Notes: generated by a model not told the origin, from the sequence alone. DNA of 64,000 nt from an uncultured Acidimicrobiia bacterium (GCA_963786955.1 CAWBAT010000004.1:832001-896000), one strand, 5' to 3'. Numbered from the stretch's first letter, positions 29,137-53,592 are shown. Numbers and translations: made by a program.

Positions 29137-30327
29137 TCAATGCTTTTGTGGCTGCAACTCTTTTTGTGCCAACTTCTTTTGATAAGCCGATTTCAGCTTT
29201 TCAACCGCTTCCCGCTTTTCCGCGTCCGTCAGCTGAATTTGCGTGGCCAGCACAACACTCATTGTTCCCGTGGGGTTTGCTAGAAAATCTTCCAATGTTC
29301 TTCCAAATCGGCGCTGGACATCGGCCACGGCATCAGACAGATCCGGACCGATCTTGGCAGCGGATTCAATGCCCAGCGTGCTGACTGAATGACAAACGAA
29401 GCAGCGGTGGGTCACAAAGAATGCTCCTTCGCCACTCATCATCTGCTTTTCTTTTTCCAACTCTTCGGCAGTGGGACGATCTACAGGTTGGGCTCCCGGA
29501 AGATATCGGGTGGGCACGGTCTTATCCTTCCAGCTGAGGATCAAGAGGGCCAAGGCCTGAGCATCCGAACTCGTGAATCCGAAATTGGGCATGACCGTCT
29601 CAGGGACAAGCGCTTTAGGGTTCTGAAGGTGTGCGACGTGCCAGGCAAAGGCCGACTTCACTCCGTACATGTGCGAATAGTCATATTGTTCAGGGGACTT
29701 GGCACCGACATTGGTCAAATCCGGTCCAATGACCCCTCCTCTGCCGTTGATGGCGTGGCAGGCCCGGCAACTTTTTTCACTGACTATTTGCTTAGCCCGA
29801 TTTAAGGCATCGGCTCCTTTGGTCTCACGATCATAGCGGTGACATTGATTACAATTCATCTGGAGCAAGATTTTCTTGTCTTTCACCGTGTAGCGCTCTG
29901 CAATGTCCTTACCCAGGACTGGTTCTTCCCAATGTTCCACCAGGCCATGAGCCGGCTTCCTATCGGTCGAATAACCCTGACCCCCATGACAAGATGTACA
30001 GCCGTATTCCTGAACGGGATGTTTTTGCAGAATCTCGCGCGGGTGAGTTCTGAAAGGGTGCGGCGCATTTTCCAGTCCCTTCCAGTCGATACCTTGATGG
30101 CAGGTAATACAGCGATCCACAATTCCCAGGTCTTTGGCCCAGATTTGCTGAAGCCCGCTGGGAATGAAGGCCGCTTTCTGCTGGCCAAACTTTTGGCTCA
30201 CCAGAGTCTTAAACTCATCTTGATAGTCTTTCCACTCCGGTTGGAAGTATCCCCAGCCAACAAAAACCATCACCAGCAGCGTGGCAGCTCCAAATGAGTA
30301 AAGCCAGATAAGGTCTTTTCGGTACAC
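29137..30327 (-). CDS. Membrane-anchored pentaheme cytochrome c
   Basis: GGAG RBS plus GTG at 30327; TM helix; CITCH, CTSCH, CNQCH, CRACH, CFVCH. Confidence 0.88.
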   Translation of the reverse strand: MYRKDLIWLYSFGAATLLVMVFVGWGYFQPEWKDYQDEFKTLVSQKFGQQKAAFIPSGLQQIWAKDLGIVDRCITCHQGIDWKGLENAPHPFRTHPREILQKHPVQEYGCTSCHGGQGYSTDRKPAHGLVEHWEEPVLGKDIAERYTVKDKKILLQMNCNQCHRYDRETKGADALNRAKQIVSEKSCRACHAINGRGGVIGPDLTNVGAKSPEQYDYSHMYGVKSAFAWHVAHLQNPKALVPETVMPNFGFTSSDAQALALLILSWKDKTVPTRYLPGAQPVDRPTAEELEKEKQMMSGEGAFFVTHRCFVCHSVSTLGIESAAKIGPDLSDAVADVQRRFGRTLEDFLANPTGTMSVVLATQIQLTDAEKREAVEKLKSAYQKKLAQKELQPQKH

Positions 30328-30359
30328 GACTGCTCCCTGATCGGTGAAATGGACAAAGG

Positions 30360-31676
30360 CTAGAACGTTCGTGGTATTTCCGGCCAGGCCTGCCAAGGCC
30401 AATAGAAATCCCAGTAAGGTCCTCGCATGAATGTCCCAACGATAGTCAAAATAGCAACACACAGCACAACAATCAGAAAAACAATAATCTGTCTCTTCCG
30501 TTCAGCGGCGAACCAGACTCCTACTGCAGAAGCTGGAGACTTGTCAAAGTACGGCCACAGAATCAATCCTAAGACGAGAATACCGGGTAACAGGACTCCT
30601 CCCAGGAGCGCTCCATTGACGGTAAAATGGCCGATTCTAAACGTGGTATCACTGACCAACTCCTGCAGCCAGAGGAAATACCAGGGAGCTTTTGCCGGAT
30701 TTGGAGTGATACTGGGGGTGGCTGGCTCCTCGAGCGGAGCTCGAAGTAGAAGTGTCAATAGAGACGTCAGAAGGAGCGTGCCGACCATGACAGCGGCAAT
30801 CCGACGGGTTACGTTGGGAGAGGATTGAACTGTGTGTAAATCCTCATCGATCAGGCTTGTTTCCACGTGAACCGTGGCACCCCGAGTAATTCCCAGCAAC
30901 GAATAGGTCTTGCTCTTGATCGGGATTGCTTTCTCTTTTTTCTGAGTCAGTGCCAGTTGGTCCGCGCAAGCCAGCCCGCCGTCTTTCCTCACTCTCCACA
31001 TGTGATACGAAAAGAGGAGCAGAACAATTAGAGGCAGAAAGAAACAGTGCAAGACGTAGAACCTCAATAGCGTGTTTTGGTCGATGGTGGACCCACCCAG
31101 CAACAGGAAACGCATCCACTCCCCGACGATGGGCGCAGAGCTGGCGATATTCGTCCCCACGGTGATGGCCCAATACGCCAGCTGATCCCAAGGTAGTAAA
31201 TAACCGGTAAACGAGAGGAAAAGTGTGACCAAGAGCAACACCACCCCGATCACCCAGTTTAAGGGCCGGTTTTGATTGGCTGCGGCTCCGTTCTTGTAGG
31301 CACCCGCCAAAAAAACCCTGACCATATGGAGAAACACAACAGCAACCATCAAATGGGCTGAGATTCGATGCAGGCCGCGCAGGAACCATCCAAACGAAAC
31401 CACGAACTCCAGATCCTTAACGGAAAGATAGGCGCGCTCAACCGAAGGAACATAGAGGAACATCAGAACAGTTCCCGTTAGCGTGAGAATCAAGAAAAGA
31501 ACGGCGGAGATAGTTCCTAGCCAAAACGAATAGCTCCAGGAAAGGCTTCGTTTGGTAATTTTTGCCGGAAACCAGTGGAGTAGAAAATTACGGACAATGG
31601 AATCACCGGCTTCCCGCTCACTCGAAGGTTGCCAGCTCCACTTGATTTTTTGCCAGGCAGTTTGTTTCGTTGGCAT
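30360..31676 (-). CDS. Cytochrome b of a Rieske/cyt b complex (fused b6 + subunit IV type)
   Basis: Four heme His (LHRISAH..FLH; VLH...YH), [15 protein letters not shown], Qo-like KAPWYF. Confidence 0.93.
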
Positions 31677-31723
31677 TGCTGCGATTCTCCTGTCGAGGTC
31701 CCGCCTGCCGGGAGATTCTTTTC

Positions 31724-32302
31724 TTAGACGGTCAGCCGGAAAGTACGCGGCACTTCAGTCGTGAGGTCGACGACCAATTGTCCGTCATCTGGTGATAGCT
31801 CAAGTTTGTGATACGCCAGTGGCCGAGGGGCCGGGCCGGAATAGTTGGTCCCGTCTCCAAAGTATTTAGAGCCGTGGCACGGACAGTGAAATTCTGCCTG
31901 CTCTTCAAACTCACGCCCCCCGAAGCTGACCTTCTTGGGCTTATTTAAACGTTCCATCTTAACGGTGCATCCCAAGTGCGTGCAGACAGCCGAAATGGCA
32001 TAAAAGGTATTTCGCTCCCGAAAGATGTAGACCCTTTTCTCTTCCAAAAAACGGGCCCCTTCTCCAAACTGCGCGGGGAGGCCAACCTTAGAGCGTTTTG
32101 GCTCCTCGTAAAGGACATTGGGAACCAGAGAGCGCATGAACGCATACGCCTGGGCAGCCAAAGCCAGCAAGAGGGAACCGAGTCCCAATCGACTCAAGAA
32201 GGAGCGGCGTGCATTCTCTTTTTTCCCCTCGGGATGAACGGGAGGATTGATGGTGACTTCCGGCTGAGGATTTGGATCAGGCATAGGATTCTTGCTCCTC
32301 AT
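31724..32302 (-). CDS. Rieske [2Fe-2S] protein
   Basis: RRSFLS Tat motif plus TM; CTHLGC and CPCHGSKY boxes; GPAPRPL. Confidence 0.95.
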
Positions 32303-34199
32303 AATGAAAGACTTCCATTGTCATGGCATCCGTAGGGCAGCGAATCGCGCAAAGGCCACAGCGGATGCACTTCTCGTCATCCTTCACCATGGCGGCAAGA
32401 GGCTGTCCCAGCTGCAAATTTGCGTTCTCCAAGATCCGCTGTTGAGCCTCCAAATCAATGTCCAGTTCCTCCAACGGCACCAGCTTGAGGCAGTATTCCG
32501 GACAGATATCGACACACCGGTTGCAAAGGACGCACTTCTCCGGGTCGTAAATCGTTTGAATATGGCAATAAAGGCAGCGTTCCGCTTGCCGCCTGGCTTC
32601 CTCTTCACTAAAACAGGACTCCACTTCAGAGATTCCGGTTCTTCGATTGAGAGAGACGGTAGGGGGAGTCTGGCGGTCGCAGGTTTCATATCCTTCTGCC
32701 ATTGTGTAAGTCCGCGTTGCCAATTTCTCAACTGTGAGATTGATGACCGGCCGGCTTGCGGGGCCACGCAAATAGTCGTCAATGGAAAGTGCTGCACGCT
32801 TTCCGTTAGAGACGGCCTCAATCAAGTTCCGTGGGCCAAAGGCCACGTCTCCTCCCGCAAAGACCCCAGGACAGGAAGTCGCCAGAGTGTTCAAGTCAAC
32901 CCGGATCGTTTTTTGCGGTGTAAGTTCGATCCTGTCTTCGGGTTTCAGAAAAGAAAGATCTGCTTGTTGTCCTATCGCCAGAATAATCGTATCGGCTTCA
33001 AACACTTCGCTGAGGTTGGGGTCGTACTCAGGATTGAAACGGCCGTTGTCATCATAAGTGCGATGAACTCCTATCAGCTCAACCGCCTTCAGTTTTCCGT
33101 GTTCTCCAATGAACCGCTTGGCACCCCGTTGCGGATGGAATTGAATGCCCTCGCGCAAGGCTTCTTCAAATTCTTCTTTACCCTGAGCCGTTCGCATGAC
33201 TGGCATTTCTTCAAAGGATTCGAGGCTGGCGATATGGACTTCTGTCGCGCCAGCTCGGAGAGCAGATCGTGCCGCATCCATCGCTGTATGGAGTTGACCG
33301 GAAGAATCTGGCGCTGAGGCAGCATCTTGACTCGCGCGAAGGGCCAACCTCGCCGCGTCGAAAGCCACAAATCCGCCACCAATGACCAGAACCTTTCGTC
33401 CGAGGGTAACGCGGTACCCGTTATTGATGTTGATCAGGTAATCAATGGCTTTGATCAAACCATCCAGGTCCGCCCCTTCTACATTCAAATCCCGTCCCTT
33501 CTGTACGCCCATCGCAATGAAGATTGCTTCGTATCCCTGAGCCTTCAGCTCGCGAAGACCAAAGGCCGGAGTGAGCGGCGTATGGAGACGAATCTCGACA
33601 CCGAGTTGCTCTACCCGGTCAATTTCTTTTTCGATAAGGGAGCGAGGGAGCCGGAACTCCGGGATGCCGTGAAACATCATGCCCCCGGCTTTGTCGGAGG
33701 CTTCAAACAGGGTCACCGCATATCCCATCAGGGCCAAATCATGGGCGCAGGCAAGTCCTGAGGGTCCGGCGCCAATCACAGCAACCTTCTGCCCGCGGCC
33801 CACTCTCTTGCGAGTTTGTTGGAGCACGGGCAAATGACCCCGTAGTTTGTTCCCCTCATCTGCCACCCCCTCAAACAACTTTTCCTGAGTATTTGGTTCC
33901 ATTGATTCGACGCCATACTTCTCCGTGACAAATCGCTTCAATCCTCGAATGGTGACGGGCGCATCAATTTTTCCCCGGCGGCAGTTGTCTTCACACGGGG
34001 CAGCACATATCCTGCCGCACACAGAGGCTAAGGGATTAGGAGAGCGGGCCACCAGATAGGCTTCTTCGTAGTTGCCTTCGGCAATGAGCTGGACGTATTT
34101 TCCCGCATCCGTCCGCACAGGACAGGCCGCCTGACAGGGGATCATCCCCTGCCAAAATGCGATATCCGGGATGATGGTTTTGTATTTCTTTTGGTTCAT
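32277..34199 (-). CDS. FAD/NAD(P)-dependent Fe-S oxidoreductase (GltD/NfnB/DsrL-like) with C-terminal 2x[4Fe-4S] domain
   Basis: CQAACP, CGRICAAPCEDNC, VIGAGPSG, VIGGG, GGDV, RCLYC, CVLCNRCVDICP, CIRCGLCAIRCP. Confidence 0.92.
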   Translation of the reverse strand: MNQKKYKTIIPDIAFWQGMIPCQAACPVRTDAGKYVQLIAEGNYEEAYLVARSPNPLASVCGRICAAPCEDNCRRGKIDAPVTIRGLKRFVTEKYGVESMEPNTQEKLFEGVADEGNKLRGHLPVLQQTRKRVGRGQKVAVIGAGPSGLACAHDLALMGYAVTLFEASDKAGGMMFHGIPEFRLPRSLIEKEIDRVEQLGVEIRLHTPLTPAFGLRELKAQGYEAIFIAMGVQKGRDLNVEGADLDGLIKAIDYLININNGYRVTLGRKVLVIGGGFVAFDAARLALRASQDAASAPDSSGQLHTAMDAARSALRAGATEVHIASLESFEEMPVMRTAQGKEEFEEALREGIQFHPQRGAKRFIGEHGKLKAVELIGVHRTYDDNGRFNPEYDPNLSEVFEADTIILAIGQQADLSFLKPEDRIELTPQKTIRVDLNTLATSCPGVFAGGDVAFGPRNLIEAVSNGKRAALSIDDYLRGPASRPVINLTVEKLATRTYTMAEGYETCDRQTPPTVSLNRRTGISEVESCFSEEEARRQAERCLYCHIQTIYDPEKCVLCNRCVDICPEYCLKLVPLEELDIDLEAQQRILENANLQLGQPLAAMVKDDEKCIRCGLCAIRCPTDAMTMEVFHYEEQESYA

Positions 34200-34886: not shown

Positions 34887-36069
34887 ATGAACACAAAACA
34901 ACTCAAACCCGGTGGTTCTGTCTTCATTGAAAGCAAAACCCTGGGCGAACTGATTGGGTGGCTAAAACAACAGGGATACTCGGTGATCGGCCCCACGATT
35001 CGAGACAATGCCATTACTCTAGGGCCTATCGACAATCTTGACGACCTTCCAATGGGTTGGACTGACGAGCAAGAGGCCGGAAGATACCGCCTGACAAAAC
35101 GGGACGATAAGGCTTTCTTTGGCTATGTGGTGGGCCCGCATAGCTGGAAACGTTTTCTTCATCCACCCGAAGTGCGTTTGTTCGCGGCAACTCGTCAAAA
35201 AAAGACTTTCAGGATCCTTGATAACGAGGCCCCCCCTTCTCGCTATGCCTTCCTTGGAGTTCGGGGCTGTGATTTGGCCGCGATCAAAGCACAGGACCGT
35301 GTTCTGCTTCCAGGACAAGTTCGTTGACGCAATCTATCAAGAAAGACGCCGGGATAATTTTATTGTGGCGGTCAATTGCACCCAGGCGGCTCCTACCTGT
35401 TTTTGCACTTCAATGGGAACCGGACCCAAGGTCGAGGGAGATTTTGACCTCTGTCTGACGGAGCTCATCCTGCCCCAGTCGCACCGATTTCTGGTTGAGA
35501 TAGGAAGTCCCAAGGGTGTGCAGGCCATCGAGGCTCTTGAGCACACGGAAGCCTCCGAAGACGGACGTCAGCAAGCTGCAGAGGCGGTGGAAAAAGCAGC
35601 CAACATGATCAAGAGAAAAATAGACACGTCCGGAATCCGAGAGCTCATCTACAGCAATCTGGAAAGTCCACACTGGGACAAGATTGCGGCGCGATGCCTC
35701 AATTGCGCTAATTGTACGATGGTCTGCCCAACGTGTTTCTGCACGACGGTCCAGGACGTCACGGATTTGACCGGCGCCCACGCTGAGCGATGGAGAAAGT
35801 GGGATTCCTGCTTTAATACAGAATTCACTTACATTCATGGCGGAAGCATCCGCATTTCCGCAAAATCTCGCTATCGCCAGTGGTTTGTCCACAAATTGGC
35901 ATCCTGGCACGACCAGTTCGGATCCTCCGGTTGTGTGGGCTGCGGGCGATGTATCACCTGGTGCCCCGTAGGCATCGATATTACCGAAGAAGCCAGAGCC
36001 TTTCGCGAGGGCGAGGGAAGCCAGCCGACTTCGCGTAGTCCTGACTCTCCTCAATCTCTTTCTCCGTAA
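34887..36069 (+). CDS. Group 3b hydrogenase (sulfhydrogenase) beta Fe-S subunit (frameshift near 35310)
   Basis: [54 protein letters not shown]. Confidence 0.92.
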
Positions 36070-36144
36070 TCGGAATTAGGGAATTCCTTTATTCGCGGAC
36101 ATCGAGTCTCGCGACTCTCAATATCAAGAAAAAGGAGAGATCTC

Positions 36145-36606
36145 ATGGAAAGCTTGGAACCCATTCTTAGAACCCACCCCTTTTTGGAGGGCCTCGACTC
36201 CCGGTTTATGGAGTTGATCACTGGATGCGCCTCAAACGTCCGGTTCAACGCGGGGGAATTTCTGTTTCACGAAGACGAGGAAGCGAACCAGTTCTACATC
36301 ATTCGCCAGGGCAGGGTTGCCGTCGAATCGCACGCCGCCGGGATGGAACCAATTATTATTCATACCGTCGAAGCGGGTGACATCCTGGGCTGGTCCTGGC
36401 TTGTCCCGCCTTACTATTGGCATTTTGATGCCAAGGCCGTTGAATTGACCCGCGCCATTGCCCTGGACGGGAAATGCCTCCGACAGAAATGTGAAAATGA
36501 CCATGAGCTGGGTTATGAATTGCTTAAACGATTTACAAACATCATCACCCAGCGTCTCGAAGCCACACGAATGCAGCTTTTGGACTTTTATGGGGTGAAA
36601 AAATGA
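36145..36606 (+). CDS. Stand-alone cyclic-nucleotide-binding domain protein
   Basis: HPFL.GL, GEFLFHE, FYII.QG.V, GDILGWSWL; no HTH. Confidence 0.88.
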   Translation: MESLEPILRTHPFLEGLDSRFMELITGCASNVRFNAGEFLFHEDEEANQFYIIRQGRVAVESHAAGMEPIIIHTVEAGDILGWSWLVPPYYWHFDAKAVELTRAIALDGKCLRQKCENDHELGYELLKRFTNIITQRLEATRMQLLDFYGVKK

Positions 36607-37449
36607 CTACGGGAAACTTGACTCTTGATCCCATGATTCCGTTGCCTTATGTGGTAACCCGCACGGCCCAGGAAACTCACGACACTTTCACCCTGGAGTT
36701 GAAGCCGGAAAATGGCGAGCGGCAGCTTGGTTTCAGCCCGGGGCAATTTAATATGCTTTACATTTTTGGCACCGGTGAAGTCCCTATTTCCATTAGCGGA
36801 AATCCAGCCTCCTCGGATATTTTGATCCACACGACGCGGGAAGTTGGCACTGTCACCAAAACCATGCGAAAGCTGAAACGGGGGGATAGCTCTGGGAATT
36901 CGAGGTCCCTATGGCAGCCAGTGGCCGGTTGAAGAGGCAGTTGGAGATGATGTCGTGATTATCGCCGGCGGGATTGGCTTAGCTCCGCTGCGTCCGGCAC
37001 TGTACTATTTGCTCTCCCATCGGGAGAAGTATGGCAAGGTAGTCCTGCTCTATGGTACGCGCAGTCCCGACGACATTCTTTATCGTCGGGAGCTGGAAAA
37101 ATGGCGCTCCCGATTAGACTTAGAAGTGTCTGTGACGGTGGACCGTGCCCTCGGAAATTGGCGAGGGAACGTAGGGGTAGTGACCACCCTGATCCCTCGA
37201 GCTCCTTTTGAGGCAACCAACACCACTGCCATGGTGTGCGGCCCCGAGATTATGATGCGCTATGTGGCTATGGAATTACAGAAACGAGGGGTTTCCACGG
37301 ACAAGATCCATGTTTCCATGGAACGAAACATGAAATGCGGCGTGGGATTCTGCGGACATTGTCAGTACGGGCCACGCTTTATCTGCAAAGACGGCCCTGT
37401 TTTCCGTTACAGCGAAGTCAAAGAATTGATATCAAAGCGGGAGATCTGA
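36603..37449 (+). CDS. Group 3b hydrogenase gamma FAD/NAD(P) subunit (frameshift near 36890)
   Basis: [46 protein letters not shown]. Confidence 0.92.
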
Positions 37450-37467
37450 ATTCAATCAGAGGAAGCT

Positions 37468-38247
37468 ATGCCTCAAAAACCTAAACCGAAACTGGCTGTT
37501 TGGAAATTTGCCTCTTGCGATGGATGTCAGCTGAGTCTCTTGGATTGTGAAGATGATCTTTTGCTGATTGCCAACCACATCGAAATCGCCAATTTTCCGG
37601 AAGCGTCCAGTGCTGTGGTAAAAGGCCCGTATGACGTATCGTTAGTGGAGGGTTCCATTACAACAGCTCATGATGCGGAGCGCATTCATCAAGTCCGTCG
37701 GGCTTCGAAGTTCCTGATCACCATCGGAGCTTGTGCCACAGCAGGAGGGATCCAAGCGCTCAGGAACTTCAAAGATGTCAAAGAATTTATTTCCATCGTC
37801 TATGCGGTCCCTGGCTATATCGAGACTTTGAATAAGTCCACCCCGATCGCCGACCATGTCCCGGTTGATTTCGAATTACGGGGTTGTCCCATTAACAAAA
37901 CCCAACTGGTTGAAGTGATCAGTGCGTTTCTCAATGGACGAAAGCCCAATATTCCTCATTACAGCGTTTGCATGGAATGCAAACGCAAAGGGACTCCCTG
38001 TGTCATGGTGACACAAGGGATCCCTTGTCTCGGTCCGGTGACACATGCCGGTTGCAATGCCCTTTGTCCCAGCTACTCACGGGGTTGTTATGCGTGTTAT
38101 GGGCCTAAGGAAACACCGAACCCATCTTCCCTCAGCTCCTGGTGGATGGACTCTGGGATTAAAGAGGAGAAGCTCGTCCAGATGTTCCGAGGATTCAACG
38201 CCTATGCCGAACCATTCCGTCGGGAGAGCGAAGCCCATGAAAAGTAG
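37468..38247 (+). CDS. Group 3b hydrogenase small (delta) subunit
   Basis: [35 protein letters not shown]...RGC..C. Confidence 0.94.
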
Positions 38248-39530
38248 AACGATTAAAGTCGACATCCTGGCCCGCGTGGAAGGCGAGGGTGCTTTGTATG
38301 TCAAAGTCAAAGACTCCAAAGTAGCCGACGTGAAACTCAGAATCTATGAGCCTCCTCGCTTCTTTGAGGCCTTTATGCGAGGACGAGACTATACCGAGGC
38401 CCCGGATATCACGGCCCGGATCTGCGGCATTTGCCCCGTGGCGTACCAAATGAGTTCCGTGCATGCTATGGAGAATATTGCCGGCGTTCACGTCGAGGGT
38501 CCCATCCGGGAACTCCGCCGTTTGCTCTATTGCGGAGAGTGGATCGAAAGCCATGTCCTCCATATCGCGATGCTCCACGCTCCTGACTTCCTCGGTTACC
38601 CAGACGCTTTGCAAATGGCCAAGGATCACCCGGGTATTGTCCAGTCAGCCCTGCAACTAAAAAAAATTGGCAATGAGATCATGGCCTTGATTGGGGGCCG
38701 CGAAATTCATCCAATTAACGTTCGGGTGGGAGGATTTTATCGAGTTCCCGATCGCCAGGAATTGTTGCCTCTCGTGGAAAAACTTAAATGGGCGCGGGAC
38801 ACCGCTCAGGAATTGGTGCGCTGGACAGCCGGTCTGTCATTCCCGGATTTTGAAAGAGATTACGAATTCGTGGCCTTGAGCCATCCCAGTGAATACCCAT
38901 TTAACGAAGGTCGGCTCGTTTCCAATAAAGGGCTTGATATCCCGATTTCTGAATATGACAACGAGTTCAGTGAAGAACACTTGGCCCATTCCAATGCCTT
39001 GCACTCTACCCTCAAGAAACGGGGCGCCTACGTCGTCGGGCCCTTGGCAAGATTTAATCTCAACTACTCCAAGCTTTCTCCCCTCGCCCAAGAAGCAGCC
39101 CAGTCGGTTGGTTTGTCGGCTGATTGCCGCAATCCGTTCCGTAGCATCATCATTCGAGCTGTTGAAACCCTTTATGCTTGTGACGAAGCTCTTAGAATCA
39201 TCGAGAATTATAAAAAGCCAGATAAGCCGGCCTATGAGGTTCCTCCAAAAGCCGGCGTGGGTTACGGATGCACGGAAGCACCCAGGGGAATTCTTTTCAA
39301 TCGCTACCGAATCGGATGAGGCCGGCAAGATCCTCGATGCAAAGATCGTCCCTCCAACTTCGCAAAATCAGCGCTCCATTGAAGAGGACCTGTGGAATTT
39401 CATTCCTTCACGGCTTAATTTGTCTGACGAGAAACTGACATTACAGTGTGAACAGGCCATCCGAAATTATGACCCGTGTATTTCCTGTGCCACTCATTTT
39501 CTAAAGTTGAAAATTGAGCGCGAATCATAG
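38237..39530 (+). CDS. Group 3b [NiFe] hydrogenase large (alpha) subunit (frameshift near 39316)
   Basis: LARVEGEG, L1 [16 protein letters not shown]2 [10 protein letters not shown] plus tail. Confidence 0.94.
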
Positions 39531-39985: not shown

Positions 39986-42015
39986 ATGGAAACCCCTCTC
40001 CGCTCGAGACATCTGATTTGTTTTGGGGCCTTTGAATTCGACCCTCACACCGGAGAACTCCGCAAGCACGGAATGAAGTTGAAATTGCATGGACACGCCA
40101 TTGATGCGCTGGTCCTATTGCTGGAGCATCCGGGGGAACTCGTCACTCGCGAGGAGTTGCAGAAGCGACTCTGGCCTGCAGACACCTTCGTTGATTTCGA
40201 ACACAATCTCAACGCGGCAGTAAAGAGGCTGCGCGAGGAATTAGACGACTCCGCCGACAAACCCCGCTTCATCGAGACGCTACCTCGTCACGGCTACCGC
40301 TTCATCGCCCCGGTGAACGATTCCCTTACTCCCAATTCCACAAACCACCAGACAGGGGAGGAAAGCCCATCTCTTCATTCCCAACTTTTTTCTCGCTGCG
40401 AGATGAGTCGTCTGCAGATAGTGGAAACGAGTGAAGGCAAAATACCCGATAGAAGACAAAGAGTTACGTTTGGACCGCGCTCGGCAGGGGAGAGTTCCCC
40501 TTACAAGCTCGGCGGCGCTGACTGGCGGGTTGTTGGCGCTATTGCGGTGGTAGTGATTAGCTTAATATGCGGCGGTATTCGCGATCGTTTGCTGTCGGCT
40601 GTCGGCGTGAGGCGCACTGTTGCCTCCGTTCCAAGATCGAGTCGATTGCCGTCCTGCCCCTGGAAAATCTCTCGGGTGATAAAGAACAGGAATACTTCGC
40701 CGACGGCATGACCGAGGCATTAATCACGGACCTGGGCAAGATCGGGGCGCTTCGGGTGATCTCACGGACCTCCGTGATGCAGTATAAGGGCACCAAGAAG
40801 CCACTGCCGCAGATTGCGCAGGAACTGAATGTGGACGCCGTCGTCGAAGGCACGGTGCAGCGTTCAGATAACCGTGTGCGCATCACGGCTAACCTGCTCC
40901 ACGCTCCCAGCGACCGGCATCTCTGGGCGGATGCCTACGAGCGTGATCTGCGCGACGTGCTGGTGCTGCAAGACGAAGTGGCGCGAGCCATCGCGAGCGA
41001 GATCCAGATCAAAATCACGCCCAACGAGCAAGTCCGCCTGGCCAGCGCCCGCCTCGTCAATCCTGAGGCCTATCGGCTTTACCTAATTGGGCGGTTCCTC
41101 TTGAACAAGCGGACCGAGGAAGGATTCAAGCAGGCTATTAACAACTTCCAGGGCGCCATCGAGACAGATCCCCACTACCCTGTGGCTTACGCGGGGCTGG
41201 CGGATGCCTACACCTTGCTCGGAAACTGGGGCCATCTGCCTCCCCGGGACGCTTACCCAAAAGCAAAGGTAGCGGCGCAGAAAGCACTGCAAATCGACAA
41301 AGACTCGGCCGAAGCCCACACTTCCCTGGCGCTTGTTTACTATGAATACGACTGGGACTGGCCTGCCTGCGAGAAAGAGTACAAGCGCGCCATCGAGCTC
41401 AATCCAAATTATGCAACGGCGCACCAGTGGTACTCAGAATACCTTTCGACCATGAAGAGGAACGCCGAAGCTATCGCTGAGGCTGAACGAGCGCAGCAAC
41501 TGGACCCGCTCTCTCCGATGATCAGTACTAATGTAGGTAATAGCTACGTATTGGCGCGTCAGTATGACATCGCAATCAGCCGGTTAAGGAACACGGTCTC
41601 ACTGTTTCCCGAGTTCTCCATTGGCTTCGGGTGTCTTGGGGACGCTTACATGGCAAATGGTAATTATGAACAGGCGATTGCCGCCTATCAAAAGTGGATG
41701 ACTCTTTCTGGAGCGAGTGCCGCCGAAGTAGCCGGGGTGGGACAAGCATACTCGAAGGAAGGTATGCGAGGTTTCTACCATTGGGCGCTTCGCAGATTGA
41801 AGGAGGAGTCGAAACACCGGTATGTCAGGGCGTATGAGTTCGCTTGGTTTTTTGCTAGCTTGGGAGAGAAAGACCAGGCTTTCTCCTATCTGGAAAAAGC
41901 CTACCAAGATCGTGACTATAAATTAACCGATCTCCAAAGACATCCACGCCTAGACACCCTACACTCCGACCCACGCTTTCAGGATCTCCTGCGCCGCATG
42001 AATTTCCCACCATAA
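39986..42015 (+). CDS. CadC/ToxR-like wHTH + TM + TolB-N-like + TPR regulator, copy 1 (frameshift near 40625)
   Basis: FGAFEFD..TGEL, VTREEL..RLW, FIETLPRHGYRF; TM; SIAVLPLENLSGD..QEYFADGMTEALI; TPRs. Confidence 0.88.
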
Positions 42016-46035: not shown

Positions 46036-48060
46036 ATGGAAACCCCTCTCCGATCGAGACATCTGATTTGTTTTGGGGCCTTTGAATTCGACCCCCACAC
46101 CGGAGAACTCCGCAAGCACGGAATGAAGTTGAAATTGCAAGGACACGCCATTGATGCGTTGACCCTATTGCTGGAGCATCCGGGGGAACTCGTGACTCGC
46201 GAGGAGTTGCAGAAGAGACTCTGGCCTGCAGATACCTTCGTTGATTTCGAACACAGTCTCAACGCGGCCGTAAAGAGGCTCCGCGAGGTGTTAGACGACT
46301 CCGCCGACAAACCGCGCTTCATCGAAACACTGCCTCGCCACGGCTACCGCTTCATCGCCCCACTGGACGATTCCCTCACTCCCGATTCCACAACCCACGA
46401 GACAAAGGAAGAAAGCTCCTCTCTTCATTTCGAGCCTTCTGCAGCAGGGAGAGACGGGACCGCGGACGGCGGAGCGAGTGAGGGCGACATACCCCCTCAG
46501 GACAAAGAGTTGAGTTCGGGCCGCTCGCGGCAGGTTAGAGCTTCCCCGTACAAGATCGGGCTGCTGGCTGTTGGGTTGTCGGTGGGATTGGCGGCAGTCG
46601 TGATCGCGCTTAATGTGTGGGGTCTGCGCGATCGCTTACTGTCAACCCTCGGGGAACGGCGCACTGTGGTCTCCACTCCCAAGATTGAATCGATTGCCGT
46701 CCTGCCCCTGGAAAATCTCTCGGGTGATAAAGAGCAGGAATTCTTCGCCGATGGCATGACCGAGGCATTAATCACGAACCTGGGCAAGATCGGTGCGCTT
46801 CGGGTGATCTCACGGACATCCGTGATGCAGTACAAGGGCACCAAGAAACCCCTGCCGGAGATTGCCCGCGAACTGAATGTAGACGCCATCATCGAAGGCA
46901 CGGTGCAGCGTTCAGATAACCGTGTGCGCATCACAGCGAACCTCCTCCACGCCCCCAGCGACCGGCATCTCTGGGCGGATGCTTACGAGCGCGATCTGCG
47001 CGACGTACTGGCGCTGCAAGACGAAGTGGCACAAGCCATCGCAAGCGAGATCCAGATCAAAGTCACGCCCAACGAGCAAATCCGCCTAGCCACCGCCCGT
47101 CCCCTCAATCTCGAGGCATACGAGGCCTACATTAAGGGACGCAGGAGCCTAGAGACTTGGACGGAAGCGGGGGCCAAGACCTCCATCAAGCACTTCGAAA
47201 AAGCGATTGCAGTGGATCCGACTTACGCGGAGGCTTATGCGGGGCTCGCCGATGCGTACAGCATGGAGGGCGATTTGATGCTTCTCCTACCGAAGGAGGC
47301 TTACCCGAGGGCAAAGGAGACAGCGGCAAAGGCTCTAGCGCTCGACGGAAACTTGGCTGAGGCGTATGCCTCCCTTTGCCATATCAGAGTGCGCTTCGAC
47401 TGGGACTGGCCTGCCGCCGAGAGAGACTGCATGCGAGCAGTGGAACTCAACCCGAATTCCGCGACCGCCCTCAACGAGGCCTCGCGTTATCACCTAGCGA
47501 TGGGCCGAATGGAAGAGGGCCTGGCTCTCGCGAGGCGACGGGTTGAACGAGACCCGCTCTCACCTGCCGCACACTCCAGGTTGGGATGGTGCTACTATCT
47601 TTCACGCCGATACGACAACGCCATCGCAGAGTTTGAGAATGCACTCGTACTTGATCCCAACTACCTCGACACCTGGGAAGGACTAGGGCATACCTATCTG
47701 GAGAAGCGAATGTACCCGGAAGCCATCAAAGCGTACGATAGATCTGCTGCGGTTGGGAGCCTTGCTTATCGAGCTAACCTCGGCAACGCTTATGCAAGAG
47801 CCGGAATGCGAGAGCAGGCTCTCAAGGTGCTGGAGGAGCTGAAACAAATTTCGAAACACCAGCATATTCCGCCGGGTGCTTTTGCTTGGATCTACACAGG
47901 CTTGGGGGATAAAGATCAAGCCTTCCTGTGGTTGGCGAAAGCTTTCGAGGAACGTGACACATCAGGGTTTCCAATGGCCAAGGTTTTTCCGGCGTGGGAC
48001 CCCTTGCGCTCCGACCCACGCTTTCAGGATCTCCTGCGCCGCATGAACTTCCCACCATAA
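46036..48060 (+). CDS. wHTH + TM + TolB-N-like + TPR regulator, copy 2
   Basis: Intact 674-aa ORF with the same architecture. Confidence 0.9.
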   Translation: METPLRSRHLICFGAFEFDPHTGELRKHGMKLKLQGHAIDALTLLLEHPGELVTREELQKRLWPADTFVDFEHSLNAAVKRLREVLDDSADKPRFIETLPRHGYRFIAPLDDSLTPDSTTHETKEESSSLHFEPSAAGRDGTADGGASEGDIPPQDKELSSGRSRQVRASPYKIGLLAVGLSVGLAAVVIALNVWGLRDRLLSTLGERRTVVSTPKIESIAVLPLENLSGDKEQEFFADGMTEALITNLGKIGALRVISRTSVMQYKGTKKPLPEIARELNVDAIIEGTVQRSDNRVRITANLLHAPSDRHLWADAYERDLRDVLALQDEVAQAIASEIQIKVTPNEQIRLATARPLNLEAYEAYIKGRRSLETWTEAGAKTSIKHFEKAIAVDPTYAEAYAGLADAYSMEGDLMLLLPKEAYPRAKETAAKALALDGNLAEAYASLCHIRVRFDWDWPAAERDCMRAVELNPNSATALNEASRYHLAMGRMEEGLALARRRVERDPLSPAAHSRLGWCYYLSRRYDNAIAEFENALVLDPNYLDTWEGLGHTYLEKRMYPEAIKAYDRSAAVGSLAYRANLGNAYARAGMREQALKVLEELKQISKHQHIPPGAFAWIYTGLGDKDQAFLWLAKAFEERDTSGFPMAKVFPAWDPLRSDPRFQDLLRRMNFPP

Positions 48061-48271: not shown

Positions 48272-51187
48272 TTACATCCCTGGCAAATCGGCTGTCCAAT
48301 TAAGGGCCCCATTGAGTTGCAGACTGGATGAATCTTTCGTCAGGACGTAGAAAGACTGTCCGTCCGGGCTCACGGCATAGCGATAGATCCCTCTTCCACC
48401 TTCTTCAAGATTCTTAACTTCAAAAAGCGCCTGGGGGACGCCGTGCTGGAAAACCGTCGTCGTTCCGGACTGAACATCCACTGACATCAATCGTCCAGAC
48501 GGCTCAACATAAAACAGCTCTTTTCCGTCTTTACGCCACAGCGGCTGGTTGCCGCCACGCGTTGAGACGAGCCACTTCTTTTCTGAGAGCGGGAATGTCC
48601 TAACGTAGACTTCGTTATGGGAGGAATAAGCAACCCATTTGCCATTGGGTGAAAATCGTCCATCGATTGCTGAGCCGAGGAACAGCTCAGGTTTTCGCTC
48701 GCCAAAAAGGGGCAAACGCCAGAGCGAGGTATCTGGAGAGTCTGCATTATGATAGAGAATATAGTGCTCGTCTCGGGACCAATCTGAGGGAAGTTTGAAT
48801 TGGCTGGATCTAAACAGGGGAGATTGGCTGGGGCTGCCATTCAGGTCTTTCACATAGAGGTTTCCTGCGCTAGAGTCCGATAAACCCGAGAATTGGTCCC
48901 GATTCGAAGCAAACAAGATCCGCTTCCCGTCGGGAGACCAACGAGCGTACTCATCATATTCCGAGCCGGTGCTGCTGGTGAGCTGAGTCTTTGTGCCACC
49001 TCTCAGCAAATCAATAATCCAGGTCTCGCCGGTGCTGGATTCCGCTTTTAACTGAACCATTGCAATCTGCCTGCCATTAGGGGAAAGTTCCAGGGCTCGA
49101 TACTCTCCCGGTGGTCCAATGCGGTCGATGGTTCTCCCATTCCGGTCTACCTGACTCAATTGTTGGCTCACGCCACCGGCCCAATAAAGCAGAGTCCTAT
49201 TCTCTGATACGGTGAAGATGCCAGCATTAGCAGACTGACTCAGAGTAAGTTCCTCGGCAATTGAAACCGGGTCACCTAATATATTTAGGTATTTAATATC
49301 GAAGGGATGGGCCAGAAGTTTCCGATCGCGTTGATACAGAAGATATCCGGGTGACGCATACAGGGCGTTGCTATCCACATCCACTAGTCGTTTGGATTCC
49401 TTGGAGTCCAGCGAGCCCCAATAAATGCCCCGGCTCTCGGCCAAGCTACTCCTGACCGTGTAGAGAAAGTGCCGGCTATCCGGAAGCCAACAGGGCCAGG
49501 TGTGTGAATATTCCTGGCGCGCCTTGTCCAGTTTCGTGACCTGCAAAGGCTTTCCTCCTTCGGCAGAGATTCTCCAAATGCCTCCAGACTGAATATGGCC
49601 GAAGAGGATGATCCCCTGCCTGTTCCAGGCAGCACTCTCGATGGGCCTCCCAATGTCACAGATCACTTGGGGGTTCCCGCCCGTGGCCTTAACCTTCATC
49701 AGTTTCCCCTGTTGCGAAAAACCGATAAAGCGGGAATCGGGCGACCAAAAAAGGGTTCCTGCATTTTCTGTGCCTGCCAGCTGCAGAGCTTCTGATGAGT
49801 TGAGCGGGCAAATCCAAATGAAACGCCTATCATTAATGGCGAGTTGCCCACCATCCGGTGAGATGGCGATGTCATAACCAAGGCTGTTGACTTGCTTTGG
49901 CGGCGGAAGGGTGAAGTGCAGCGCGCCCCTCCGAACCGGTTGTTGGTGAAGGTAATAGATGCCAATGATTAAACCCAACCCAAAGAGGAGAACAGATACT
50001 GCCGACCAGACCAGGCGTTCTCGCTTCTTACGATTTGTCGCGGCAACCACCGGAGCTCCTACCCGGGAGGAGTCTTCGGCAATCCACTTCAGTTCGTTCG
50101 TCAGGTCGCCAGCACTCTGCCAACGCTCATCTGGATCCTTCGCTAGGCAGCGCTTGACCACATGGTCTAAGGCCGGTGGAGTCATCGGCTGAATTCTGCT
50201 GATGGGCGGCGGCTCAGCGGTCAGGATAGCCGCAGTCAGACTGGCCTTGCTTTCACCTTCAAATGGGTTCCACCCTGTCGCCATCTCGTACAGGACCACA
50301 CCGAAGGCAAAGATATCTGTCCGCACGTCCACCTCCTTTCCTTCCACCTGCTCGGGCGCCATGTATTCCAGAGTCCCCAAAATCATGCCTTCTTCTGTCA
50401 GACTCTCGCTTTGGGAAAGGTAGGGCGCGCTCGCCGAGCGCGCCGTGTGGAGGTCATCCGTTGCCCCCTCGGAGGCCGGCGGTTTCGGCGAAACCGCCCT
50501 ACCTGACTTCGCCAGCCCAAAGTCCAGCAGCTTGGCACCATTCTTTGTCAGCATGATGTTACCCGGCTTCAGGTCCCGGTGAACAAACCCCTGACGGTGA
50601 GCTTGATCGAGTGCACTGGCAATTTCAATCGAGTACCGTAAGACCTGTGCCGCTGGCAATGGGCCTTTCTTCAGCCGCTTGCTCAACGTCTCACCTTCCA
50701 GATACTCCATCACCAGAAAGTCAATTTGGTCCTCATTGCCAATGTCATACAAGGCGCAGACATGGGGATGATCCAAACCGGCAATTGCCCGTGCCTCCCT
50801 CTCAAATCGCCGACGCAAATCCGCTTGCTCCGATAGGTATTCCGGTAAAACTTTAATGGCTACGGTGCGGTTCAGCCGAGTATCTCTTGCCTTGAAGACC
50901 TCTCCCATTCCTCCGACACCCAACACAGCTTCAATCTGGTAAGGACCTAGTTTCCTCCCCAGTAGTGAAACTGGCTCGGCCGCTAGCTTTTCGGCAGTCA
51001 ATCGTAGAGCCGATCGATCCAGAAGCTGCTGGGCCGGCTGATCATAAGCCAGTAGCGAATCCACTTCGCGACGCAGTTCCGCGTCTGCTTCGCAGGCCAT
51101 CTCCAAGAAAGTTGTGCGCTCATCTTCATTGACCTCAATGATGGCGTTATAGAGATGATTGATTTCTTCCCAACGGTCGGGAGTCAT
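48272..51187 (-). CDS. Hanks-type Ser/Thr kinase with TM and extracytoplasmic TolB/PD40-like beta-propeller
   Basis: LGVGGMGEV, VAIK, HRDLKPGN, DFG, YMAPE; TM; WSPDG repeats. Confidence 0.93.
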   Translation of the reverse strand: MTPDRWEEINHLYNAIIEVNEDERTTFLEMACEADAELRREVDSLLAYDQPAQQLLDRSALRLTAEKLAAEPVSLLGRKLGPYQIEAVLGVGGMGEVFKARDTRLNRTVAIKVLPEYLSEQADLRRRFEREARAIAGLDHPHVCALYDIGNEDQIDFLVMEYLEGETLSKRLKKGPLPAAQVLRYSIEIASALDQAHRQGFVHRDLKPGNIMLTKNGAKLLDFGLAKSGRAVSPKPPASEGATDDLHTARSASAPYLSQSESLTEEGMILGTLEYMAPEQVEGKEVDVRTDIFAFGVVLYEMATGWNPFEGESKASLTAAILTAEPPPISRIQPMTPPALDHVVKRCLAKDPDERWQSAGDLTNELKWIAEDSSRVGAPVVAATNRKKRERLVWSAVSVLLFGLGLIIGIYYLHQQPVRRGALHFTLPPPKQVNSLGYDIAISPDGGQLAINDRRFIWICPLNSSEALQLAGTENAGTLFWSPDSRFIGFSQQGKLMKVKATGGNPQVICDIGRPIESAAWNRQGIILFGHIQSGGIWRISAEGGKPLQVTKLDKARQEYSHTWPCWLPDSRHFLYTVRSSLAESRGIYWGSLDSKESKRLVDVDSNALYASPGYLLYQRDRKLLAHPFDIKYLNILGDPVSIAEELTLSQSANAGIFTVSENRTLLYWAGGVSQQLSQVDRNGRTIDRIGPPGEYRALELSPNGRQIAMVQLKAESSTGETWIIDLLRGGTKTQLTSSTGSEYDEYARWSPDGKRILFASNRDQFSGLSDSSAGNLYVKDLNGSPSQSPLFRSSQFKLPSDWSRDEHYILYHNADSPDTSLWRLPLFGERKPELFLGSAIDGRFSPNGKWVAYSSHNEVYVRTFPLSEKKWLVSTRGGNQPLWRKDGKELFYVEPSGRLMSVDVQSGTTTVFQHGVPQALFEVKNLEEGGRGIYRYAVSPDGQSFYVLTKDSSSLQLNGALNWTADLPGM
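50419..50503. repeat. REPIN-like double palindrome inside the kinase activation loop
   Basis: GGTAG-GGCGCGCTC-GCC-GAGCGCGCC ... GGCGGTTTC-GGC-GAAACCGCC-CTACC. Confidence 0.8.
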
Positions 51188-51588: not shown

Positions 51589-53592
51589 ATGGAAACCCCT
51601 CTCCGTTCAAGACATCTGATTTGTTTTGGGGCCTTTGAATTCGACCCCCACACCGGAGAACTCCGCAAGCACGGAATGAAGTTGAACTTGCAGGGACACG
51701 CCATTAATGCGCTGACCCTATTGCTGGAGCATCCGGGGGAACTCGTGACGCGCGAGGAGTTGCGGAAAAGACTCTGGCCTGCAGACACCTTCGTTGATTT
51801 CGAACACAGTCTCAACACGGCCGTAAAGAGGCTGCGCGAGGTATTAGACGACTCCGCGGAAAGACCCCGCTTCATCGAGACGTTGCCTCGTCACGGCTAC
51901 CGCTTCATCGCCCCACTGAACGATTCCCTCACTCCTGATTCCACGGCCCACACAACAGGACAACAAAGCCAATCTCTTCATTCCGAGCCTTCTACCGCTG
52001 GGAGAGATGGGACCGCAGACGGCGGAGCGAGTGAGGGCGAAATACCCCCCCAAAAAAAAGAGTTGAGTTCGGGACGTTCGCGGCAGGTTAGATCTTCCCC
52101 TTACAAGATCGTCGTGCTGGCTGTTGGGTTGATGGCGGGATTGGCGGCGGTCGTGATCGCGCTTAATGTGGGGGGTCTGCGCGATCGTTTGTTGTCAGTG
52201 GTCGGGGGACGCCGTGCTGTGGTCTCCACGCCCAAGATCGAATCGATTGCCGTCCTGCCCCTGGAAAATCTCTCGGGCGATAAAGAGCAGGAATACTTCG
52301 CCGACGGCATGACCGAGGCATTAATCACGGACCTGGGCAAGATCGGCGCCCTTCGGGTGATCTCACGAACTTCTGTGATGCAGTACAAGGACACCAAGAA
52401 GCCCCTGCCGCAGATTGCGCGGGAACTGAATGTAGACGCCATTGTCGAAGGCACGGTGCAGCGCTCAGATAACCGCGTGCGCATCACCGCGAACTTGCTC
52501 CACGCTCCCAGCGACCGTCATCTCTGGGCCGAAACCTACGAGCGCGATTTGCGCAACGTGCTGGCGCTGCAAGACGAAGTGGCACGAGCCATCGCGAGCG
52601 AGATTCAGATCAAAGTCACGCCTAACGAGCAAGTCCGCATGGCCAGCGCCCGCACTGTCAACCCCGAGGCCTATGAACTTTACCTTCAGGGGCAGTATCA
52701 CTATTACAAGTGGAGACCAGACGAGTTCCAGAAAGCCATCGCGTACTTTGAGAAGGCGATCGTGGCCGATCCCAAGTGGGCCCCGGCCTACGCTGGGCTG
52801 GCCAACTCCTACGGGTGGCTTTGGATAGAAGGTGCTCTGCCACCCCAAGAGGTCCTGCCTAGATTCAACGCAGCGTTGAGCACAGCGATGGAGATTGATG
52901 ACACGCTTCCCGAGGTGCGTTACACACTGGCAGTGAGAGCATTCTATTATCGTTGGGACTGGGGTGAGACGGAGAGGGAATTCAAGCGAGCGCTGGCGCT
53001 CAACCCGAACCTGGTGGAGGCTCGCTACGAATACGCCTGGTTCTTATCGTCGATGGGGCGAATCGCTGAAAGTCTCACGGAGGCAAAGCGAGCCGTTGAA
53101 CGCGATCCACTCTCGGTCACGGCAAACCTAGCCTTGGGTTCAATGTACTCAATGGCCCGGAAATACGACCAGGCAATACCCCAGTTACGGCATACTATCG
53201 AGCTGGAGCCAAATGACCCGAGAGGATACGGATTCCTCGCCGGAGTATATGAGCAGACGGGAATGTACGAGGAAGCTGTCATGGCCCACCAGAAGGCCAT
53301 GACTCTGTCAGGGGCCCAGCCTGGAGAAGTTGCCGCACTTCGTCGTGCGTACAACGAGTCGGGATACAAGGGTTATTTGATGTGGTTCCTTGGACGGCAG
53401 AATGACCCATATTCTAATGCCGTACTGCATACGCGGCTTGGGCATAGGGATGATGCCTTGGTGTGCCTTGAAAAGGCCTACAAGCAACACCGCTGGGAGA
53501 TGGTTCAGCTGAAAGGACGCCCAGTGTGGGACCCCCTGCGCTCCGACCCCCGCTTTCAGGACCTCCTGCGCCGCATGAATTTCCCACCGTAA
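51589..53592 (+). CDS. wHTH + TM + TolB-N-like + TPR regulator, copy 3
   Basis: Intact 667-aa ORF with the same architecture. Confidence 0.9.
   Translation: METPLRSRHLICFGAFEFDPHTGELRKHGMKLNLQGHAINALTLLLEHPGELVTREELRKRLWPADTFVDFEHSLNTAVKRLREVLDDSAERPRFIETLPRHGYRFIAPLNDSLTPDSTAHTTGQQSQSLHSEPSTAGRDGTADGGASEGEIPPQKKELSSGRSRQVRSSPYKIVVLAVGLMAGLAAVVIALNVGGLRDRLLSVVGGRRAVVSTPKIESIAVLPLENLSGDKEQEYFADGMTEALITDLGKIGALRVISRTSVMQYKDTKKPLPQIARELNVDAIVEGTVQRSDNRVRITANLLHAPSDRHLWAETYERDLRNVLALQDEVARAIASEIQIKVTPNEQVRMASARTVNPEAYELYLQGQYHYYKWRPDEFQKAIAYFEKAIVADPKWAPAYAGLANSYGWLWIEGALPPQEVLPRFNAALSTAMEIDDTLPEVRYTLAVRAFYYRWDWGETEREFKRALALNPNLVEARYEYAWFLSSMGRIAESLTEAKRAVERDPLSVTANLALGSMYSMARKYDQAIPQLRHTIELEPNDPRGYGFLAGVYEQTGMYEEAVMAHQKAMTLSGAQPGEVAALRRAYNESGYKGYLMWFLGRQNDPYSNAVLHTRLGHRDDALVCLEKAYKQHRWEMVQLKGRPVWDPLRSDPRFQDLLRRMNFPP

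Follow-up and report, generated by a model that had tools for sequence, protein, structure and literature searches.

A flavoprotein, Rieske, cytochrome b and multihaem cytochrome c unit at the head of clade II nos operons: a candidate relative of the anammox Rieske/cytochrome b complexes

NosZ is the one biological sink known for nitrous oxide (N2O), and the route by which electrons reach the clade II enzyme, together with the energy gained on that route, is the question on which the gene set described here bears. In a window of 64,000 nucleotides (nt) from an uncultured Acidimicrobiia bacterium (GCA_963786955.1, CAWBAT010000004.1:832001-896000; the window is this whole stretch, and the analysis reads its source as an acidobacterium from soil or sediment), a flavoprotein gene is followed by genes for a Rieske protein, a cytochrome b and a multihaem cytochrome c and then by clade II nosZ, nosB, nosD, nosF, nosL and nosY. 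The part of this arrangement from the flavoprotein gene to nosZ had been described in an initial annotation made from the sequence alone. The whole arrangement was confirmed, and the order of the first four genes was found to recur beyond chance, namely in all of the 56 to 66 loci in which it could be assessed. Judged by its sequences, the unit at the head of the nos operon appears to be a widespread relative of the Rieske/cytochrome b complexes of anaerobic ammonium-oxidizing (anammox) bacteria, and its products may form one membrane complex that serves NosZ as electron donor.

The genes form one run on the minus strand with short gaps or overlaps, and they are listed here in the direction of transcription, with positions counted from the first letter of the window:

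34199-32277, minus strand: flavoprotein of 640 amino acids with Fer4_20, two Rossmann folds and a C-terminal 2x[4Fe-4S] ferredoxin domain (Pfam)
32302-31724, minus strand: Rieske [2Fe-2S] protein of 192 amino acids (Pfam, E-value 3e-11) with the motifs CTHLGC and CPCHGSKY
31676-30360, minus strand: fused cytochrome b of the b6 plus subunit IV type, 438 amino acids (Pfam Cytochrome_B, E-value 4e-44, and Cytochrom_B_C)
30330-29137, minus strand: membrane-anchored pentahaem cytochrome c with five CxxCH motifs (Pfam); the open frame extends to 30462
29035-27178, minus strand: clade II nosZ with propeller and cupredoxin domains (Pfam), reading as two open reading frames, 29035-27428 and 27495-27178
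27096-26404, minus strand: nosB-like membrane protein with hydrophobic segments, directly 3' of nosZ
26354-24936, minus strand: nosD (Pfam)
24939-24028, minus strand: nosF (Pfam)
24025-23579, minus strand: nosL (Pfam)
23503-22684, minus strand: nosY (Pfam), with two single-base indels
22585-21380, minus strand: FGE-sulfatase-family protein (Pfam, E-value 1.5e-41), closing the nos cluster

The Rieske open reading frame (ORF) and the flavoprotein gene overlap by 26 nt, an overlap also described in the initial annotation, and comparison with the 396-amino-acid ORF of a relative (L014) indicates that the cytochrome c likely starts near 30327-30330. The nosB-like protein had no Pfam match; its name is taken from the description of nosB in PMC11096178, and the position of its gene after nosZ is kept in the nos-linked loci. 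The cluster has the features of clade II, with a nosB-type gene directly after nosZ, with nosD, nosF, nosL and nosY present and with no NosR-like gene found by Pfam between 21380 and 34199. As read from the sequence, the N terminus of NosZ carries a hydrophobic signal lacking an RR motif, which makes it Sec-type and not twin-arginine. The FGE-sulfatase-family protein, whose gene follows nosY in the genomes G001 and G002 too, has possibly a copper-related role. Scans for promoters, terminators and FNR/CRP boxes yielded nothing above the shuffled controls.

The conservation of the gene order was assessed in two surveys. In the same class, 41 genomes were surveyed; apart from the window's own, 13 of them were found to hold a full-length relative of the flavoprotein, and 15 regions were fetched. 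The Rieske, cytochrome b and multihaem cytochrome c genes follow the flavoprotein gene in these regions wherever the contig continues, and nos genes follow only in two genomes of the same genus and in one of the same family. Additionally, a scan of species representatives with an alignment of the flavoprotein matched 773 stretches; a relative is encoded in 641 of them, and 60 loci were obtained from the best 80. Linkage was counted in 74 loci (L013-L087, with the duplicate L015 removed) on the same strand and downstream of the flavoprotein gene; L031/L033 and L040/L044 are near copies, and related loci are not independent. A Rieske gene was present in 66 of the 66 loci with at least 700 base pairs downstream, a cytochrome b gene in 63 of the 63 with at least 2 kilobases (kb), a multihaem cytochrome c gene in 56 of the 56 with at least 4 kb and nosZ in 34 of the 49 with at least 6 kb. 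The initial annotation had made its proposal depend on conservation of this order in homologous clusters, and the flavoprotein gene proved to be a fixed partner of the Rieske and cytochrome b genes. All loci with a flavoprotein at least 54% identical to that of the window contain nosZ and none at 50% or below does; the window's flavoprotein subfamily is always followed by nosZ, which supports the proposed dedication to NosZ.

By record title, nosZ occurs in 37 of the 60 scanned loci, and the labels of these 37 come from eight phyla overall: Acidobacteriota (25), Myxococcota (4), Bacteroidota (2) and one each of Ignavibacteriota, Calditrichota, Kryptoniota, Zixiibacteriota and Actinomycetota, with one further locus unlabelled. 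The full order from the flavoprotein through the Rieske protein, cytochrome b, cytochrome c and nosZ to nosB, nosD, nosF, nosL and nosY is also present in the cultured Anaeromyxobacter sp. PSR-1 (L062).

In order to cover one phylum, 301 Acidobacteriota genomes, including the unpublished G063, were taken as a sample and the coordinates of the matches were cross-tabulated by hand. The sample held nosZ in 35 genomes (E-value at most 1e-50), the flavoprotein family in 68 (at most 1e-90) and cytochrome b of this kind in 121 (at most 1e-45). Thirteen genomes (NosZ 64-93% identical to the query) out of the 35 with nosZ have the flavoprotein and cytochrome b genes on the same strand as nosZ and a few kb upstream of it, so that the unit heads the nos operon in these genomes as well as in loci labelled from seven further phyla. 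Neither gene was found near nosZ in the other 22 (NosZ at most 63% identical), several of which have nosZ on short contigs that do not allow adjacency to be assessed. Where cytochrome b was matched no more than about 3 kb from nosZ, as is the case in 13 genomes, the flavoprotein gene always lies just beyond cytochrome b, and nosZ with an adjoining cytochrome b gene lacking the flavoprotein gene was not seen in the 301 genomes. Conversely, for about 82 of the 84 flavoprotein loci of this sample cytochrome b was matched no farther than 8 kb away, the exceptions being one gene at a contig edge and one locus on contig C17 of G087 (L089:4980-8977). The latter consists of a flavoprotein gene, a short Rieske gene and a gene for an Alginate_exp-family porin, with no cytochrome b gene, and it may be a remnant.

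The four-gene unit also occurs with partners other than NosZ. In one sister form (L022-L024) it is accompanied by a periplasmic molybdoenzyme of the Nar/Nxr/ethylbenzene dehydrogenase type, consisting of an alpha subunit of 921-1151 amino acids, a Fer4_11 beta subunit, an EB_dh gamma subunit and a NarJ-like delta chaperone; the molybdoenzyme genes were located downstream of the flavoprotein, Rieske and cytochrome b genes at L022:11576-16758 and L024:11739-17196. A second form (L016-L021, L083, L086) has octahaem cytochromes, a b6 split from subunit IV and an upstream cupredoxin-like gene. Two proteins are encoded just upstream of its flavoprotein gene, at L016:3858-6009 and L086:7985-9958, one a monohaem protein of about 440-500 amino acids and the other cupredoxin-like, with a CarboxypepD_reg domain. 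A third form, in Verrucomicrobiota loci, has hexahaem cytochromes. Moreover, at 14 places in the 301-genome sample the cytochrome b gene lies 5-8 kb upstream of the flavoprotein gene; the one at L088:4760-16619 reads Rieske, cytochrome b, heptahaem cytochrome c, subunits of a cbb3-type oxidase (COX1 and FixO families), flavoprotein and P-type ATPase, and the same order is probably present at the 13 other places.

In a tree of 61 flavoproteins, built without the long-branched L046 and after the removal of 14 rows that were truncated or badly read, all forms not linked to nos fell into one clade (support 99/100), and the nos-type proteins formed two large groups and one small one. For cytochrome b, a tree of its b6-like part showed the same split between nos and non-nos forms (support 100), from which it follows that the two proteins were inherited together. 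In the nos groups of the trees the phylum labels are mixed.

The flavoprotein was assigned by Pfam to Fer4_20 and Pyr_redox_2 (E-value 3e-34) with the C-terminal two-cluster ferredoxin domain, in agreement with its initial annotation as GltD/NfnB/DsrL-like. Its best solved relatives, both by sequence (phmmer) and by fold (Foldseek), are subunit A of NfnABC (9bov/9bp5), StnABC (8oh5) and NfnI (5jca), and its AlphaFold2 (AF2) model reached a pLDDT of 86.4 and a pTM of 0.86. The Fer4_20 cysteines, the GxGxxG motif for flavin adenine dinucleotide (FAD) and the second dinucleotide fold with GxGxxA, all typical of the GltD/NfnB/DsrL family, are present, and C22, C26, C61, C65, C69, C73, G143-G145-G148 and G274-G276-A279 are invariant among the relatives. 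The protein thus shares the combination of Fer4_20, FAD domain and NAD(P)H fold (NAD(P), nicotinamide adenine dinucleotide (phosphate)) with NfnB, GltD, DsrL and the A subunits of NfnABC and StnABC, and its extra C-terminal two-cluster domain matches the architecture of DsrL. It differs from them in that it is encoded with genes of a membrane complex and not with NfnA, GltB or DsrAB, and in that it has (S/C)LE where the NADPH binders have YRR. The second dinucleotide fold reads GGGFVAFD, and in the alignment SLES stands at the position of the NADPH-type YRR of NfnABC, as had been noted initially; (S/C)LE is found across the relatives, with L326 and E327 conserved and the glutamate invariant. 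With Glu327 of (S/C)LE replacing YRR, the sequence points to a dinucleotide site of the NAD(H) type. GGGFVAFDAA is the form of the nosZ-linked flavoproteins and GGGNVAxDVA that of the sister forms. Hydropathy gave neither a signal peptide nor a transmembrane segment and the protein was therefore read as cytoplasmic. A database search returned 7977 of 8000 scored candidates at an E-value of 1e-30 or better, and the 120 matches listed are 72-100% identical to the window protein; databases name the family no more closely than 'FAD-dependent oxidoreductase', 'glutamate synthase beta-like' or 'formate dehydrogenase beta'.

A twin-arginine signal (RRSFL) is present in the Rieske protein. Its best matches in the Protein Data Bank are 9rk4 (E-value 1.3e-22) and 9rk3 (3.5e-21), followed by a Rieske protein of a b6f complex (8e-13). 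The former two are Kuste4569 and Kustd1480 of Kuenenia, the Rieske proteins of complexes with an NAD(P) oxidoreductase, with measured potentials of +303 and +335 mV (PMC12954380). CPCHGS is constant in all Rieske proteins with a readable loop except L076 (CACHGS). The loop of the window protein, CPCHGSKY, holds the serine and tyrosine named in the initial annotation, which are the hydrogen-bond donors of high-potential Rieske proteins; the serine is invariant and the tyrosine occurs in the proteins of Acidobacteriota and Anaeromyxobacter.

Cytochrome b has seven transmembrane segments as predicted by hydropathy, and its best solved matches are b6 proteins (E-value 4e-40). The three features attributed to it initially were all found: KAPWYF replaces PEWY, 14 residues lie between H210 and H225 of helix D, and the phmmer alignment places W52 at Cys35 of b6, the ligand of haem ci/cn. 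NPAKAPWYF is constant in the fused cytochromes b wherever readable, and none of 19 flavoprotein-linked cytochromes b has a cysteine at the position of W52. Five histidines (34, 103, 117, 210 and 225) are invariant in 42 of 42 aligned flavoprotein-linked cytochromes b, four of them being the canonical haem ligands in the usual b6-type arrangement and the fifth, His34, lying in the cytoplasmic N-terminal segment. The cytoplasmic linker between helices D and E comprises about 60 residues with the conserved motif KTY.L, and it is of low confidence in the AF2 model of the protein folded alone (pLDDT of the protein 74.6). Both His34 and KTY.L are absent from two ordinary Rieske/cytochrome b paralogues of the window's genome. 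Like the b6f complex and the Firmicute-type menaquinol bc complexes, the protein has a b6-type first half, the 14-residue spacing of helix D and a subunit IV-like C-terminal half, and it differs from them in the missing haem cn cysteine, APWY, the fifth, N-terminal histidine, the long linker, the multihaem cytochrome c and the flavoprotein. With the haem cn cysteine lost and PEWY changed, the membrane core is not that of a canonical b6f or bc1 complex. The pentahaem cytochrome c combines three c7/NrfB-like haems and two class I domains with one transmembrane anchor. Taken together, most of the motifs named in the initial annotation are conserved across the family.

The window's genome (G000) contains four Rieske/cytochrome b loci, and the flavoprotein gene adjoins only the one at nos. 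The three others (C5:115686-121669, C5:542890-545096 and C5:641748-645690) hold, respectively, b6, subunit IV and an octahaem cytochrome c of 1039 amino acids; a Rieske protein and a cytochrome b fused to a dihaem cytochrome c; and b6 with nine-haem and five-haem cytochromes. One paralogue without a flavoprotein gene beside it, termed loc2, has a cytochrome b of closely related type with the same His and RKDGG motifs. The genome also has four NuoF-like genes.

The known systems nearest to the unit are Kuste4569-4574 and Kustd1480-1485 of the anammox bacterium Kuenenia stuttgartiensis, which are described as operons of a Rieske protein, a b6-type cytochrome b, a multihaem cytochrome c in the place of cytochrome f or c1 and a cytoplasmic NfnB-like FAD/NAD(P) iron-sulphur oxidoreductase (PMC12954380). 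The anammox likeness drawn in the initial annotation is direct, at the sequence level, for the Rieske protein, which is far closer to 9rk4 and 9rk3 than to any other solved Rieske protein, and indirect for the flavoprotein, through a shared relative, 9bp5 being also the best structural match of Kuste4570 (PMC12954380). Serine, or serine and tyrosine, beside the Rieske cluster is a further common trait. Unlike the anammox complexes, which have b6 plus subunit IV, haem cn kept in their models and six or eight haems in cytochrome c, the unit of the window has one fused cytochrome b of 438 amino acids, W52 at the haem cn position and five haems in cytochrome c; its partner is NosZ and its hosts are ordinary heterotrophs without an anammoxosome.

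Sanford and coworkers are reported to have shown clade II nos clusters in 2012 with 'Fe-S', Rieske, cyt-b and cyt-c genes in front of nosZ. The same labels appear in the legends to cluster maps in PMC11096178 and PMC13122619, and from these legends we infer that the gene labelled 'Fe-S' is that of the NAD(H)-type flavoprotein. Full-text literature searches found no paper in which the 'Fe-S' gene of nos clusters is recognised as that of an NAD(H) flavoprotein or compared with the anammox subunit. The genome paper of Ignavibacterium album describes nos genes and mentions neither a Rieske nor a cytochrome b gene beside them.

The reading that is favoured, tentatively and at a probability somewhat short of even, is that the first four genes encode one membrane complex, the dedicated donor of NosZ, with the flavoprotein as a bound subunit through which the low-potential branch leads to NAD+. 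The b6-type cytochrome b would oxidise menaquinol at its outer (Qo) site, from where the high-potential electron would pass through the Rieske cluster and the pentahaem cytochrome c to CuA of the periplasmic NosZ. The second electron would cross the membrane through the two b haems and, instead of ending only at the quinone-reducing site, would continue through the [4Fe-4S] chain of the flavoprotein to FAD and NAD(H) on the cytoplasmic side; a further haem at the invariant His34 may sit on this path. In the direction proposed for the anammox complexes, the favourable reduction of N2O would pull the oxidation of quinol and thereby drive the second electron uphill to NAD+, and re-oxidation of the NADH by complex I would move more protons per N2O than an ordinary Q cycle does.

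This scheme is consistent with the gene linkage, the matching trees, the combination of a cytoplasmic flavoprotein with a Rieske protein exported by the twin-arginine route, the occurrence of His34 and KTY.L, the missing haem cn cysteine, the likeness of the Rieske protein to the anammox ones, (S/C)LE with its invariant glutamate in place of YRR, and the four NuoF-like genes. It also agrees with biomass yields that are up to 1.5 times higher in clade II than in clade I N2O reducers and that are described as unexplained (PMC5864245). Reduction of NAD+ was preferred over input of NADH because in this direction alone the cell would gain what complex I does not already provide, because a high-potential-type Rieske protein is found in menaquinone organisms and because all identified partner enzymes use high-potential acceptors.

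Several points weigh against it. The contact between the flavoprotein and cytochrome b is putative; the transfer from the inner b haem to NAD+ would oppose both the redox gradient and the membrane potential; and the hosts, which are mostly heterotrophic, make ample NADH. A site that appears to be of the NAD type and not of the NADP type suits the oxidation of NADH at least equally. The anammox mechanism is itself a proposal and not a demonstrated reaction (PMC12954380). In the anammox models an extra b haem is held by an N-terminal histidine of each cytochrome b monomer (PMC12954380), and His34, a possible counterpart, lies 196 residues before the RK motif by residue arithmetic, compared with 204 in both anammox proteins (His43/His62). 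The tyrosine of the Rieske protein is replaced by phenylalanine in the nos-linked copies of Bacteroidota and Ignavibacteriota and in all non-nos forms, and loc2 has serine and tyrosine too (CPCHGSGY), so that this pair is not exclusive to flavoprotein-linked complexes. A complex prediction for two copies of cytochrome b (residues 16-418) with residues 478-640 of the flavoprotein scored 0.29 against a mark of 0.32; it comprised only the C-terminal domain of the flavoprotein and no haems and it counts neither way. Gene fusion was also considered as evidence of contact. Among 198 adjacent pairs checked, only the flavoprotein and Rieske genes of L059 lack a stop codon between them, possibly due to an assembly error, and this case was set aside.

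The opposite direction, in which the flavoprotein is an input module, is rather unlikely, though it comes closest among the alternatives. NADH would be oxidised at FAD and its electrons would pass through the iron-sulphur clusters to the inner b haem and on to menaquinone or beyond, making the complex an NADH:cytochrome c (N2O) oxidoreductase that bypasses complex I. Glu327 at the place of YRR, the heterotrophic hosts and a hydrogenase cluster adjoining the operon are all in keeping with such a role, and the transfer from NADH to menaquinone is downhill, so that no special coupling would be necessary. Set against this, the genome apparently has genes of the complex I type, represented by the four NuoF-like matches, which would conserve more energy, and it is on this ground that the authors of the anammox study reject input of NADH (PMC12954380). 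Furthermore, a high-potential-type Rieske protein in menaquinone organisms would be left without a reason, and among the loci examined the neighbouring hydrogenase genes are seen again only within the genus and at one other locus.

An ordinary Q cycle is a still less probable explanation. The flavoprotein would here branch reversibly off the main path, as a redox valve or sensor that brings the b haems and the NAD pool into equilibrium and that matters only at over-reduction or when N2O respiration starts. Such a role would fit the canonical haem ligands, four histidines that are kept in 42 of 42 aligned cytochromes b in the usual b6-type arrangement, and also loc2, whose closely related cytochrome b has no flavoprotein gene beside it, which makes the membrane core appear functional without one. 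However, a linkage with almost no exception and trees that agree across eight phyla speak for a core subunit and not for an accessory, and the haem cn cysteine is lost and PEWY altered. The least probable of the alternatives is that of a soluble flavoprotein which is merely co-expressed and which supplies, for instance, low-potential electrons for the maturation or activation of NosZ: although the contact with the membrane complex is putative, and although clade II clusters are without nosR (PMC11409646), the role of which in clade I another protein may take, the flavoprotein family is equally linked to Rieske and cytochrome b genes in the nos-free operons with molybdoenzyme, cbb3 oxidase or octahaem cytochromes, a cytoplasmic protein needs a membrane partner to reach the periplasmic NosZ, and all subunits of the anammox homologues are reported to co-migrate (PMC12954380, citing its reference 9).

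A wider claim, namely that an electron-bifurcating respiratory complex in at least eight phyla uses the large and otherwise wasted energy gap between menaquinol and N2O (or O2 or a nitrate-type acceptor in the sister forms) to form NADH at the membrane, which complex I re-oxidises in a proton-pumping loop, is put forward with more reserve than the favoured reading of the operon itself. If it were true, bifurcation would explain the higher yields of some clade II N2O reducers, and the contested anammox mechanism of 'quinol to NAD(P)H' would be a general design. Since the four-gene unit is also found beside a cbb3 oxidase and a Nar/Nxr-like enzyme, the findings suggest a general, overlooked route by which bacteria that use menaquinone couple high-potential acceptors with the NAD pool. 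The function of the anammox complexes is debated and hard to test due to the fact that anammox bacteria resist genetics; as Anaeromyxobacter carries the complex and grows on N2O, the mechanism is testable there.

The interruptions in nosZ and nosY were compared with related sequences. By tblastn with the intact NosZ of G001 (618 amino acids), nosZ is split by one extra base at about 27487, which is absent from contigs of three public DNA runs (X1, X2 and X3) of close relatives. The nosY gene is in three pieces due to two single-base insertions at 23070/23071 and 22793, each of which is absent from contigs of two of four public runs. Because contigs of the relatives omit these bases and because other genes of the window are fragmented as well, the frameshifts were read as probable assembly indels and not as decay. 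In one RNA library, contigs cover parts of nosF, nosD and the cytochrome c, cytochrome b and Rieske genes and the 3' end of the flavoprotein gene, a weak hint that the operon is expressed in relatives, since such libraries can contain DNA.

Divergent from the operon, a set of genes resembling a group 3b [NiFe]-hydrogenase is encoded on the plus strand at 35119-39530, with a Fer4_22 protein, a cNMP-binding regulator, a NAD_binding_1/DHODB iron-sulphur subunit and both the small and the large subunit; several of the genes are in pieces, and the set is also present in G001 (L014) and partly at L071. The initial annotation had suggested that NADH from this hydrogenase could enter the complex directly. 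The hydrogenase-like set indeed adjoins the operon, but the idea itself is weak: among the loci examined, the neighbourhood occurs only in the same genus (L014) and at L071, and group 3b hydrogenases are usually NADP-linked, which does not suit a flavoprotein site of apparent NAD type. Farther along the window, three paralogous genes for Trans_reg_C winged-helix proteins with TPR repeats were located at 39986-42015, 46036-48060 and 51589-53592, the first of them apparently frameshifted, and they adjoin a gene for a Ser/Thr kinase with PD40 repeats (48272-51187).

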